Origin: a virus
Length of the DNA: 64,000 bases
Strand: one strand, 5' to 3'
IMG/VR virus record: IMGVR_UViG_3300042429_001107
Position numbers and translations under genes: made by a program
In this document: piece by piece, positions 43,623-54,752 of the stretch
How positions within the stretch are numbered: position 1 is the first letter of the stretch
Layout: each line of letters begins with the position of its first letter
Notes under the pieces: generated by a model
Told to the model about the DNA's origin: nothing
The model's database searches: none
What the model saw: only the letters and a program-made list of their open reading frames with translations

Positions 43623-44543
43623 ATGAGAATAATGAATTTTTCACAATTTTTAAACGAGAACTCAGAAGGTGGATATTCTTCTTTTGAAGCTTTACCTAAA
43701 CCTCTCAAAGATTTTTTTATTGACGGGGTTGGAAAAAACATACTATCTAAAGTAGTCGGACTTAAAAACTTTTCAATAGAACTTCAAGGATCAGAGATAT
43801 ATTTCGTTATTAACGGTAATAAAATACTAGTTCCGTTTGTTAATTATGTTTATGATCAAGTTGTGCCTAATACTAAATCATTAACAAATGAACCAATCAT
43901 TTATAATTTTTATAATAGTTTAGGAATGGATTTAGATAATTCTAGCTACAGATTCTATAAACATGATATAAATGGTTTATCTAGATTATTCTATCCTATA
44001 TTTACCAAACTTAGAGATATTATAAAAGATGATAGACCACTTCTAAATCCTTTTAATGATATTGATCTAAAAAACAACCGTCTTATACAATTATTAGATA
44101 AATTAGGTGCTTATATTGATACTAGTGATCAAAGGAAAAAGAAAGGGATTTTAAGATTCTCATTAAAAGATTTTGGTTATGGACTTATCATACAACCTAA
44201 TGGTTATATGAGAATTGATTACGGTGATAAAACACCAATTCTTACAACTAAGATGGAAATAACAGCACCTGCTTATACTGAGGATGATCTCAATTTAAAA
44301 TTATCATATTTAGTTGTTTATCTTATGAAAGATATACTTAAAAAATATAATGTTCCAGTAAAAACTATAAACTTGCTGGCTAAATTCTACGGAGATAGTG
44401 ATCTTAACGAATATGATAACCTAATAAAAGAAATATCTTTAAACTATCCAGGAGCAACTTCTCTTCTTCCTGATCCTAACTCGGTACTAAATCCTAGCGT
44501 AAAGAAAGGATCTAGTATGCTAAGAAGATTTGGAGTTATCTAA
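43623..44543 (+). CDS. Hypothetical protein with leader and C-terminal KGxxMLRRFG motif
   Basis: MRIMNFSQFLNE ... KGSSMLRRFGVI. Confidence 0.6.
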   Translation: MRIMNFSQFLNENSEGGYSSFEALPKPLKDFFIDGVGKNILSKVVGLKNFSIELQGSEIYFVINGNKILVPFVNYVYDQVVPNTKSLTNEPIIYNFYNSLGMDLDNSSYRFYKHDINGLSRLFYPIFTKLRDIIKDDRPLLNPFNDIDLKNNRLIQLLDKLGAYIDTSDQRKKKGILRFSLKDFGYGLIIQPNGYMRIDYGDKTPILTTKMEITAPAYTEDDLNLKLSYLVVYLMKDILKKYNVPVKTINLLAKFYGDSDLNEYDNLIKEISLNYPGATSLLPDPNSVLNPSVKKGSSMLRRFGVI

Positions 44544-44603
44544 ATATTGAAACTTAATTTCCCTTGTTAAATATAAAGTTAAACCAATAATCTTTATATT
44601 ATT

Positions 44604-44960
44604 ATGTCATTCCACAAAAGATTTTATACTTGGGAGAGAATAAAAGATAAAACTAGCTCCAATTTTAACGAATTTGATATGTGGCTTTATAAGCCGGATG
44701 CACATATTCTGCAAGACACTGAATCCTCCGATTTTTTTGGTGCCTATTTTGCTTTACCTAACGATTTAAAAGAGAATCTTTATGAATCTTTGAAAGTTGA
44801 AGAGGAAAGTTTCCTTAAAGATCTTATTAAATGTATTAAAGTTGTACATGAGAATAAGAACGGTGAAAATCACGACGAAGCAATACAAAATTATAGGTCT
44901 TTATTCGTATCTAAGTGGGATACTAAGGCATTGAAATACCAAAATCTAATAGAAAAATAA
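44604..44960 (+). CDS. Hypothetical protein
   Basis: ORF behind GAAACT-N17-TATAAA. Confidence 0.5.
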   Translation: MSFHKRFYTWERIKDKTSSNFNEFDMWLYKPDAHILQDTESSDFFGAYFALPNDLKENLYESLKVEEESFLKDLIKCIKVVHENKNGENHDEAIQNYRSLFVSKWDTKALKYQNLIEK

Positions 44961-44961
44961 A

Positions 44962-51807: not shown

Positions 51808-52923
51808 ATGGAAAGAAAAAGTTACCAATTAAGAACCCTTAATAAATATGTTAATGAAGGAAGGATAGAAAAGAATTCTCATCCTACCCTACCTATTGCT
51901 ATTTATAATTATACAAGAGACACTCAATTCAAAAATGATTGGGATGAGATAACTCTGGCTATGAGAGGAACAATAATAGACGATGAGGGATATGTTATTG
52001 CTTCTGCATTTCCTAAATTCTTTAATTATGAGGAAGTCACAGATCAAGTTCCTCCCAAGGGTGATTATGTTTATGTGCAGGAAAAGATGGACGGATCTTT
52101 AGGTATTCTTTTCTATTATGAGAACGAATGGCATCTTGCAACTAAAGGATCATTCACTTCTGAACAGGCTAAAAAGGGTATGGAGATATTAAAAAAGAAC
52201 TATCAAGTTTTTGATCAGGTATTTATGACACATGTAACTTATATAGTTGAGATTATCTACCCCAGTAATGTTATAGTTGTTGATTATAATGGAGAAGAAA
52301 AGATAGTTTTTCTAAGTACAGCCATTAATGGAGAGGAACAACACTGGACAACTTCTTTGAGTATATTTAATGCTAGCGGTATTAAGAAAGAAGATATAGT
52401 TAAGTGCGAACAGCACTTCTCTTTTGGTCCAGATCTATATAAATCATTGAAAGAAAAAAATATAAAGAATAAAGAGGGATTTGTACTTATATTCCAGCCA
52501 TATTTTAGAATGAAGATAAAGTTTGAAGAGTATGTGAGATTGCACAGACTTCTAACCAACTTCTCTAATGTTGATATCTGGGAATATTTAAAGGACGGAA
52601 GGGATATCAATATACTTCTAGAAAAAGTTCCTGATGAATTTGATGCTTGGGTAAGAAAAACTATAGATAATCTGAATTATCATAAGTATCGAATAGAGGA
52701 GAGAGCAGGAAAGATCCACGAGTATTTTAGATATGGAAAATATGGAGATCGTGAGACTGAGCCCACTAAGAAACAATTCGCTGAGCATCTTGAATTCTGT
52801 AAAACAGAGCCATCTATAAAAGCAATCTGCTTCTCTATATGGGATGGGAGGAATTATGACACAATCATATGGAAAATGCTCCGTCCTAAATATCAAAAGC
52901 CTTTTTGGAATAGAGAAGTGTAA
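51808..52923 (+). CDS. RNA ligase (T4 Rnl1-like)
   Basis: YNY...RG...FPKFFN, EKMDGSLG (motif I), ATKGSF, EGFV, RMKIKFEEY. Confidence 0.85.
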   Translation: MERKSYQLRTLNKYVNEGRIEKNSHPTLPIAIYNYTRDTQFKNDWDEITLAMRGTIIDDEGYVIASAFPKFFNYEEVTDQVPPKGDYVYVQEKMDGSLGILFYYENEWHLATKGSFTSEQAKKGMEILKKNYQVFDQVFMTHVTYIVEIIYPSNVIVVDYNGEEKIVFLSTAINGEEQHWTTSLSIFNASGIKKEDIVKCEQHFSFGPDLYKSLKEKNIKNKEGFVLIFQPYFRMKIKFEEYVRLHRLLTNFSNVDIWEYLKDGRDINILLEKVPDEFDAWVRKTIDNLNYHKYRIEERAGKIHEYFRYGKYGDRETEPTKKQFAEHLEFCKTEPSIKAICFSIWDGRNYDTIIWKMLRPKYQKPFWNREV

Positions 52924-52955
52924 CTTATTTGTTCATTTTGTCTATAATAATATGA

Positions 52956-53981
52956 ATGAGGAGAAGAATTATAGACATTTATTTAGATGAATTTGATTCA
53001 TATTTTAGAACTAAATCAATCAGTCCTGCTATTTCAAAAAAGTTCCTTTCTGCTTTTCATAATCACGTCAAAGAAAATGAGAGCACTTTCAAAAAATTCT
53101 GGGAGTTTATAAAAGAAAATAGGGAATTAAGTATTGAGGAATCAATCAAAAATCTTAATGATCAGATACTAAATAATAAAAAGAACAATAGAACAATAGT
53201 GTTTGTTTCTGATTGGTGTCATTCATATTTAGGAGCTGGTGAAATTATATGTCTTCTTGTATCAGATCAAGCATTATCAGGAGGTAAAAGATATCCAGAT
53301 TTACTTTTTAAAGACTCCACAAAGAAAATAGAAATTAAAGCTTACGCGGCCAATTTTAGACTCACTGAAGCCACTTCATTCTTTACTGATCTAGGAACTA
53401 TAATACAAGCCCTAGTACAAGGTGGATTTATAAATAGTCTTACTGATTCAAATAATAATGAGTTAAGAAAGGGGCTAAAACATTTCTGTGAATCTTTCCT
53501 TTGTCCTAGAGGTTACATAGAACTTAATAGTAAGATATGGAAGCTTGAATCTAAGGATGATGAAACTATGATATTTAAGATCAGTCCAGAAACTCCTAAA
53601 GAGATAGTTAATTATTCTATAGTGAGAAACTCATTAAGAAACTGGTTAGGAAGAGGAATGTTAAGTGTAAAACTTGCAGAGATAATTGACCCAACTAGGA
53701 CAACAAGAATACAGAAGAAAGAGGTACATGAATATGTTAATCATATTTTAGGAATGAGAGATTTATCTCCTATACCATTAGAACAATATTTCATCCTATG
53801 TGGCTTAGATTCTATGATAATATATGAAAAGAAGAATAAGACATTTCCGTTTCAGATAGTGAGATTTGAGGATCTTTCCCAATTCACTTTAGATAGGATT
53901 GGACAAGGTAAGGTTTCTTATAAAAGAAAATCATCTATCAAATCCACCAAATCTCTTCAACATATTAGTTCCCTTAGTTAG
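52956..53981 (+). CDS. Possible PD-(D/E)xK nuclease
   Basis: GAGE...YPDL...IEIKA. Confidence 0.4.
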   Translation: MRRRIIDIYLDEFDSYFRTKSISPAISKKFLSAFHNHVKENESTFKKFWEFIKENRELSIEESIKNLNDQILNNKKNNRTIVFVSDWCHSYLGAGEIICLLVSDQALSGGKRYPDLLFKDSTKKIEIKAYAANFRLTEATSFFTDLGTIIQALVQGGFINSLTDSNNNELRKGLKHFCESFLCPRGYIELNSKIWKLESKDDETMIFKISPETPKEIVNYSIVRNSLRNWLGRGMLSVKLAEIIDPTRTTRIQKKEVHEYVNHILGMRDLSPIPLEQYFILCGLDSMIIYEKKNKTFPFQIVRFEDLSQFTLDRIGQGKVSYKRKSSIKSTKSLQHISSLS

Positions 53982-54752
53982 ATCGCTTATATTAATGTTG
54001 AATTCTTTTATTCCTTGCTTGACGTAGTCTATTATTTTCTCTGTTCCTAATTCTGTATATGACCTTTTTATATTAGTGTCATTAGAATTTTTAATAAGAT
54101 CTAAATACATTTTTTTTGAATCCTCTATATCTGCTATTTTCATCCATCCAATTATAGCCTCTTCGAATGAATCTGGTGTATGTGTATAAGTATTTCCGGA
54201 GAAAAGAAATTCATTCATCCACCATCTGAAAAATCTTGTCTGATATGAATCTTGACCAAATGATGTCTGAGATATCCAACTTCTCATAATATCATGAGCT
54301 GCTTTATCAACATCATATCCACTTTGATATAAAGGTATCTCACATTCCATTTTTAATATACCAGGAGAAACTTGTTCTGCATTTCCTATTGTTAATTCAT
54401 CAGATATCTTTATGATTATTCTGTTTACCATATTCCATTCCTTAGGTTCTAAGCATTCAATAAATTGACCGAACCATCTTTGTATATCTTGATTTCTTAT
54501 TGCAATAGTCATATTACCTGCTCCTGCATCTTTCATCATTCCAAAATCGAATATCTTACCTCTCAATTTTATAAAGGGTAAAGATCCAGATATGAGATCA
54601 AATATTTCCATTCTCCTTCTATCATCTTCTCCCCAATTAGAACTTTCAAAAAATGCACTATTGCCATCAGCATTGTTTATTCGACTAGCAGAATCTCTTG
54701 CAAGTAGCCAGTTTTTAAAGCTGTCTATGCGTTTTTTCTTTCTCTTCTTCAT
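53931..54752 (-). CDS. Hypothetical protein with leader and KGxxMLKRFG motif
   Basis: Start moved to 54752 because GATATATA lies at 54758-54765; MKKRKKKRIDSFKNWL ... KGTNMLKRFGGFDR. Confidence 0.55.
   Translation of the reverse strand: MKKRKKKRIDSFKNWLLARDSASRINNADGNSAFFESSNWGEDDRRRMEIFDLISGSLPFIKLRGKIFDFGMMKDAGAGNMTIAIRNQDIQRWFGQFIECLEPKEWNMVNRIIIKISDELTIGNAEQVSPGILKMECEIPLYQSGYDVDKAAHDIMRSWISQTSFGQDSYQTRFFRWWMNEFLFSGNTYTHTPDSFEEAIIGWMKIADIEDSKKMYLDLIKNSNDTNIKRSYTELGTEKIIDYVKQGIKEFNINISDLTKGTNMLKRFGGFDR

Follow-up and report, generated by a model that had tools for sequence, protein, structure and literature searches.

The 64,000-nucleotide stretch analysed here (the window) comes from the IMG/VR virus record IMGVR_UViG_3300042429_001107, and three of the proteins that it encodes, P0001, P0002 and P0003, share a ten-residue peptide, KG(A/S/T)(S/N)ML(K/R)RFG, close to their C-termini. 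Sequence comparison demonstrates that this tag is portable between otherwise dissimilar proteins, biased in position, under purifying selection and co-variant by genome. On these grounds we lean towards reading it as a portable short linear docking motif that would be read by one shared, co-evolving partner. The window corresponds to bases 83,916-147,915 of a single 148,938-bp record (G000; 32% G+C) and is a fragment of the genome of a large, uncultured, T4-related freshwater phage. For comparison we used five related IMG/VR records, taken whole (G001-G005; 130-248 kb). All six records are incomplete (47-85%), and because the CheckV completeness of G000 is only ~54%, three tag copies per genome is a lower bound.

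Results

The first copy, KGSSMLRRFG (44505..44534, plus strand), lies in the 306-residue P0001 (family 1; 43623..44543, plus strand) and is followed by VI and the stop. KGASMLKRFG (51045..51074, minus strand) precedes SFGQSEEQ and the stop in the 214-residue P0002 (family 2; 51018..51662, minus strand), and KGTNMLKRFG (53946..53975, minus strand) precedes GFDR and the stop in P0003 (family 3; 53931..54752, minus strand), the start of which was set at Met6 of a 278-residue open reading frame (ORF) to match its homologues. The initial annotation gave these peptides correctly, its 12-residue strings running 6 nt beyond the ten-residue cores, and its statement that each lies within 8 residues of the stop holds, the distances being 2, 8 and 4 residues for P0001, P0002 and P0003. 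A six-frame search of the 148,938-bp record for KG..ML.RFG returned exactly these three matches, and looser variants added none. Chance can be excluded, because the amino-acid frequencies in G000 ORFs would give just 5e-5 strict matches and all three observed copies lie at most 8 residues from a stop. Nor were the tags copied recently as DNA, since the three 30-nt cores agree with one another at only 22-23 positions and differ in their choice of synonymous codons (CTA/TTA/TTG, AAA/AAG and GGA/GGT).

The 3' end of P0003 overlaps that of a convergent gene without a known family (52956-53981, plus strand; 341 residues) by 51 nt (53931-53981), so that the strand opposite tag copy 3 codes for the end of that gene. 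Synteny of this convergent pair extends to G003, G004 and two metagenomic contigs.

The tag is not confined to these three proteins. A tail profile built from 35 tails separates 51 tag instances from background in the six records, with 1-17 copies in each of the five relatives. Their position is strongly biased: 47 of the 51 lie within 10 residues of the C-terminus, two fall within the first 25 residues and two are internal. The 41 carriers defined by regular expression collapse into 15 BLAST clusters once the tag is masked, and we therefore count at least 15 sequence clusters that bear it. They include a coiled-coil protein, a family built of ~22-residue repeats (F.CS.N.LTSLEGAP..VGG) and small proteins of 121-381 residues with no detectable similarity. 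The idea that the peptide is a portable address label is thus borne out, with the addition that it may also be N-terminal or internal. Across all instances the consensus is (D/E)-x-x-K-G-(A/S/G)-S-(M/L/I)-L-x-(R/K)-F-G-hydrophobic-hydrophobic, and acidic residues frequently come after it. Five tandem paralogues at G004 21462-24082, which start with MTREEF(I)..LE..GY and have paralogues in G001, G003 and G005, contain repeats like those of the leaderless tag carriers described below, yet do not carry the tag.

Beyond the six records, the tail profile matched 11 of 1.84 billion proteins, ten of which belong to the same phage families; the eleventh, an ELWxxDG-repeat protein, is unrelated and was discarded as a false positive. 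A pattern scan of IMG/VR gave 22 stretches, close to the number estimated by hand for chance, and the genuine ones were all of this lineage. The strict pattern occurred in 63 stretches among 185,579 species genomes, mostly MLKRFG signal-peptide starts or non-coding DNA, and this search revealed no bacterial protein family with the tail. The one true tail among them, KGGSMLKRFGLYGNDE, ends a protein on contig JAJTDQ010000122.1 (9,257 bp), which is binned with a metagenome-assembled genome of Cryomorphaceae (Flavobacteriales); it is either a weak hint at the host or a mis-binned phage contig. A literature search found no mention of such a tail, and it is not mentioned in a review by Iyer et al. 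(2021; PMC7824862).

How far the three window proteins are related to one another bears directly on whether anything portable is involved. The weak internal similarity noted earlier between the first two is real: P0001 and P0002 match by BLASTP with an E value of 7e-6, and their family alignments match in hhalign with a probability of 96% (E 4e-9) over ~105 columns, which form a C-terminal domain that ends in the tail. By this comparison the two are partial paralogues, the homology covering the C-terminal ~105 residues of P0002. P0003, conversely, has only the tail in common with either of them, as the profile-profile alignments cover just 16-17 residues. Neither the three proteins nor 16 further carriers contain a Pfam or PHROGs domain; the searches gave only sub-threshold matches and, in one protein, coiled-coil matches.

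AlphaFold2 models of P0002 and P0003 (pLDDT, the predicted local distance difference test, 73 and 84) consist of alpha/beta bodies followed by helices, with the tag as a last short helix after the body. Confidence decays along this helix (tail-block pLDDT of 64, 52 and 35 in P0002, and of 75, 58 and 49 in P0003), so that in the models the tail looks like a tethered peptide. No known fold was found above background for either model in the PDB (Foldseek, VIA-align wide), nor for the P0003 model in BFVD and the ESM Atlas, and an ESM Atlas feature search gave no usable match. The best structural scores in these fold searches were Z values of 4.7 and 6.6, with TM scores of 0.34 or less. Both models do match, weakly, the same generic alpha/beta sandwiches. 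The initial annotation itself named, as the outcome that would speak against its reading, that the three proteins are full-length paralogues whose tail is simply a structural helix of their fold; the domain common to P0001 and P0002 and the shared sandwich matches could be cited for this. We give this reading next to no credence: only P0001 and P0002 are paralogous, and only in part, P0003 shares nothing but the tail, the tag occurs on repeat and coiled-coil proteins and on small proteins with no detectable similarity, some copies are N-terminal or internal, and model confidence in the tail of P0002 and P0003 is low.

The tail is conserved beyond the sequence around it. Each of the three proteins has 37-72 metagenomic homologues, and the tail is retained in the metagenomic orthologues of all three families. 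Where orthologues are less than 60% identical, identity at the seven fixed tag positions is 82%, 76% and 67% in families 1, 2 and 3, compared with 55%, 54% and 34% for the rest of the protein, and purifying selection evidently acts on the tail.

The form of the tag is, moreover, uniform inside each genome across unrelated families and different between genomes. The form in G000, G001 and G002 is M-L-x-R-F-G, and 18 of 20 copies have M as the first hydrophobic residue; in G003 and G004 it is [IL]-L-x-R-[FL]-G, where 0 of 16 copies have this M and 7 of 16 have L in place of F; and G005 uses L-L-x-[KN]-F-G, where R before F is found in 0 of 9 copies, as against 33 of 36 elsewhere. The same is seen on metagenomic contigs. 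In families 2 and 3 on a 346-kb contig, F has become I or M, K-G is lost and poly-Asp tails have been gained; a family-1 protein with the same shift was placed on this contig by its listed length alone. On a 43-kb contig to which both families were attributed by gene order and length, K-G and R are lost. Because these dialects shift as sets, and because the copies differ at synonymous positions, the tags look like a set of ligands that co-evolve with one receptor.

About 20 proteins of G000 begin with a leader resembling the capsid-targeting sequence (CTS) of T4, and the initial annotation described all three tagged proteins as leader-bearing. This is clear for P0001 (MRIMNFSQFLNEN), whereas the N-termini of P0002 (MSIKNYEGFKKIQE) and P0003 (poly-Lys, then IDSFKNWLLA) are merely leader-like. 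A CTS-like N-terminus was recognised by eye in 12 of the 15 carrier clusters. By a crude regular expression the leader is present on 20 of 41 carriers and on 251 of 1190 other ORFs (odds ratio (OR) 3.6, p 1.4e-4), and a late-type GATATA(T/A)A motif lies upstream of 15 of 41 carriers compared with 172 of 1259 (OR 3.6, p 2.8e-4), both tests treating orthologues as independent. In the window this motif (GATATATA) is found 31 nt upstream of the P0002 start (51686..51693, minus strand) and upstream of MoxR2 (38855..38862, plus strand), at the head of the operon that P0001 closes; P0003 lacks it in the window, but its orthologues have one. In G004 the tag genes sit in a block of leader-bearing genes.

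Not all carriers follow this pattern. Host-type early promoters stand in front of nine of the 51 instances, and nearly all of these nine are leaderless; the leaderless carriers concerned are the repeat proteins, the proteins tagged at the N-terminus and one protein tagged internally. Their shared upstream element reads AATCAT...TAGAATTTTCTA(C/T)ATT(T/A)G. A TAnnTTTG box is typical of Bacteroidota promoters, and the element, which contains one, looks like a host-type early promoter with an additional upstream box. The tag is evidently independent of the leader, because several carriers are leaderless and stand behind this different element. We infer that the carriers are either probable injected cargo or early gene products, both of which would be present at the onset of infection. 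The same element, as AATCAT(T)n...TAGAATTTTCTA(C/T)ATT(T/A)G, precedes each of ~35 small leaderless genes in one orientation at 85-119 kb of G001, and such genes are also seen at 1-20 kb of G004.

The protein beginning at 42280, the tail of which had been suggested to be analogous to the tag, proved to be a separate case. P0004 (42280-43149, plus strand) belongs to the MoxR2 operon, a late operon in the order MoxR2-peptidase2-vWA2-P0004-DUF5856, with P0001 as its final gene. Although the orthologues of P0004 are no more than 33-36% identical, they share an invariant 16-residue C-terminus ending in DLGDLGF (LLPNIDTAADLGDLGF; 43099..43146, plus strand). This tail is real, but it is a different, family-specific peptide, and the tag profile does not recognise it. 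It tracks triad 2 instead: G000 carries two triads of MoxR, DUF2201-peptidase and vWA genes, and P0004 is found only in the four records with triad 2, directly following the vWA2 gene or what remains of it, while G003 and G004 lack both P0004 and triad 2. From this distribution P0004 may be a ligand of triad 2.

Other C-termini in the head-gene region are also conserved. Two leader-bearing proteins (G000 9083-10727, minus strand, with orthologues) end in EKVIRFDNFF(N/G) after a poly-acidic run and in KSGL(S/T)S(I/V)L.F, respectively. These ends are possibly distant cousins of the tag, although they do not score with the tag profile. A 497-residue protein (G000 7511-9007, minus strand; G002 L014:11118-12608, minus strand) joins a RimK-like ATP-grasp domain (PF08443, E 1.4e-35) to a RimB-like PF05618 'Zn_protease' domain, and it adjoins an Asn-synthase-like gene and the leader-bearing, very acidic proteins ending in VIRFDNFF. 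From its domains, this fusion could be a system for C-terminal glutamylation and trimming of phage or host proteins.

The wider gene content of G000 is distantly T4-like, with a split family-B polymerase, both topoisomerase II subunits, a gp32-type single-stranded DNA-binding protein, UvsY, primase, helicase and RnlA. The nearest family-B polymerase among INPHARED phages is 40% identical and comes from an uncultured megaphage; there is no close cultured phage, and no relatives of P0002 were found among INPHARED phages. Two further ideas about the peptide were considered and dropped. The C-terminal half of the split polymerase ends in SPNLLLVRALF in all six records, which is not the tag, as would be required for a sliding-clamp-binding peptide of the T4/RB69 gp43 type; no match to a gp45-type clamp (PF09116) was found in these 47-85% complete records. 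The phage also encodes a transfer-messenger RNA (48842-49297), but its tag peptide, read by ARAGORN as EEAELLLAA, is unrelated to the KG..ML.RFG tail.

Discussion

Our results support the interpretation of the KG..ML.RFG peptide as an address label in general terms, but not the specific bipartite role in packaging or ejection that the initial annotation attached to it. The association of the tag with CTS-like leaders and late promoters does hold, but at least three carrier families are leaderless and stand behind host-type early promoters, and the tag is therefore not, strictly speaking, one half of such a signal. We infer from the conservation, position and dialects of the tag that it binds a protein, and the distribution of its carriers bears on which protein that might be.

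In the docking-peptide model that we favour, the tag would sit on a flexible linker, usually at the extreme C-terminus, and would probably form a two-turn amphipathic helix capped by its two glycines. Its basic residue would plug into a groove of one common partner protein together with the side chains of M/L, L and F. Because the carriers appear to be either leader-bearing late cargo or leaderless early proteins, this partner should be available at the onset of infection, and could be a phage hub, virion-borne or early, such as the MoxR1-vWA1-peptidase1 machine, or else a host protein. The leader-bearing late carriers are probable head cargo that would be delivered to the next cell, and the tag would serve to collect an exchangeable set of accessory proteins on the partner. 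As to the identity of this partner, we divide our odds between a host protein, the capsid interior and a phage hub carried along with the cargo.

Several observations weigh against this model. The weak matches of P0002 and P0003 to the same sandwiches leave some room, at the level of the models, for a very remote common ancestry of some carriers, and the carriers have no recognisable domain or fold that hints at a common process. The coherence of the dialects is seen in only a handful of lineages and could in principle reflect a shared constraint that is not a protein, and the enrichment of leaders and promoters depends on counting orthologues as independent.

One rival reading is docking inside the capsid, with the tail binding the T4-type major capsid protein, a protease-scaffold fusion or the portal, and so loading or holding head cargo as a C-terminal counterpart of the leader. 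Most carrier families have CTS-like leaders and late-type promoters, a prohead protease of the T4 type and a capsid protein like gp23 are encoded in the relatives (the capsid protein gene of G000 itself being cut off at the start of the record), and short C-terminal capsid-docking peptides are established in encapsulins, the HK97 protease and the P22 scaffold. The protease of the relatives is fused to a ~470-residue extension, perhaps a scaffold (G002 L014:405-2495; G003 18267-20300), and the fusion has a conserved end, AAELEKRFKK, that is loosely tag-like. G003, at 248 kb the most complete of the relatives, also encodes a putative portal of 863 residues. Attractive as this is for the late carriers, it does not explain the nine instances behind early promoters, among them the repeat proteins and the proteins with N-terminal tags, and we regard it as rather unlikely. 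That the tag instead labels clients or adaptors of the MoxR AAA+/vWA/metallopeptidase machine, tethering carriers as the SspB peptide does to ClpX or marking them for processing, is unlikely in our estimation. It would fit the position of P0001 at the end of the MoxR2 operon, the presence of a MoxR1-type triad in all six records, the leaders on the ATPase and the peptidase, which would let the machine travel with the cargo, and the common build of AAA+ adaptors, in which a fold is followed by a linker and a terminal peptide. However, triad 2 is absent from its syntenic site in G003 and G004, which nevertheless carry 10 and 11 tags, so that triad 2 cannot be the sole or general reader, as a MoxR/vWA reading limited to it would have it; that role could fall at most to triad 1. 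The position of family 1 next to a triad is not conserved either, and triad 1, being in every record, offers no contrast in co-occurrence. Co-folding of peptidase2, vWA2 and Mg with the tail alignment gave a score of 0.00 and a mark of 0.32, which speaks neither for nor against binding, triad 2 being a poor choice given its absence from G003 and G004.

The partner could also belong to the host, the tail docking injected and early phage proteins on one host protein, as a mimic or a ligand, with dialects that track hosts. The carriers would then be the two protein classes present when infection starts, and host switching would produce just such set-wise shifts. The searches of 185,579 species genomes and 1.84 billion proteins described above gave no bacterial family with this tail, only signal-peptide starts, non-coding DNA, one phage-like contig, the phage families themselves and an unrelated repeat protein. 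The absence of such a family does not exclude a host receptor, but we consider one quite unlikely. Finally, E. coli MinD ends in KGFLKRLFGG, a C-terminal peptide with the same build of K-G, two hydrophobic residues, two basic residues and F-G, which raises the possibility that the tag is a membrane-targeting amphipathic helix. The amphipathic character of its 11-residue core is moderate, with a mean hydrophobic moment of 0.38 and a HeliQuest-type D of 1.01 that falls in the 'possible' zone, and copies at either terminus are compatible with such a role. Nevertheless, the net charge of the tails (last 20 residues and carboxylate) is zero or negative in 83%, with a mean of -0.68 and values of -5 or -6 in some with poly-Asp/Glu, and such acidic tails would be repelled because bacterial membranes are anionic. 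The hydrophobic moment falls short of the 0.52-0.55 of two MinD peptides, the variable position tolerates Asp, and G, L, F and G hardly vary and, where they do, change together from one genome to the next, which is unexpected of a helix that binds lipid. The constraint on individual residues and the dialects fit a protein pocket better, and a MinD-like anchor is disfavoured as very unlikely.

If the tag is a docking peptide, it offers a simple sequence rule with which to list the proteins that work with a central infection hub, and a bait for that hub, in uncultured freshwater phages whose accessory proteins cannot otherwise be annotated. It would also be a natural minimal tag with which to direct foreign proteins to the hub in the engineering of T4-type phages. 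A more specific and rather doubtful extension is a two-label scheme, in which the CTS-like leader loads the head and the KGxSΦLxRFG tail, independently of it, plugs injected cargo and the first early proteins into one hub of the newly infected cell, possibly a virion-borne MoxR1-vWA1-metallopeptidase machine. If this were true, the repeat proteins, coiled coils and orphan folds would be exchangeable adaptors or effectors serving one engine of remodelling or proteolysis.

T4 provides the precedent of portable capsid-targeting tags at the N-terminus, but we know of no description of a second, mostly C-terminal tag that is carried by at least 15 unrelated accessory families of a jumbo-phage lineage and co-evolves by genome. 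Like the CTS of T4 (IPI-III, Alt), the tag is a peptide of about ten residues on unrelated accessory proteins of a T4-type phage, and most of its carriers also bear a CTS-like N-terminal leader. Unlike the CTS, which is N-terminal and cut by the prohead protease at (L/I)-x-E, it is mostly C-terminal, its core (K-G-x-x-M-L-x-R-F-G) contains no such site, its sequence is unrelated and early proteins without a leader carry it as well. Encapsulin cargo-loading peptides, the HK97 protease tail and the C-terminus of the P22 scaffold are similar in being short, conserved C-terminal peptides on a flexible linker, portable among unrelated cargo proteins and recognised by a single partner, but they bind the interior of an HK97-fold shell and mark encapsidated proteins only, whereas some tag carriers look early. 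MinD shares the K-G, hydrophobic pair, basic pair and F-G as well as the terminal position and perhaps the amphipathic character, and differs in that the tag has acidic flanks, a net charge that is mostly zero or negative, near-invariant residues and genome-wise co-variation, all of which point to a protein pocket. A similar architecture is seen in the tethers of AAA+ adaptors, such as the C-terminal ClpX-binding peptide of SspB and HbYX tails, in which a folded domain is followed by a flexible linker and a terminal peptide; every carrier genome encodes MoxR, although there is no similarity in sequence, the tag can do without one of the two MoxR triads, and binding would here be proposed by analogy.

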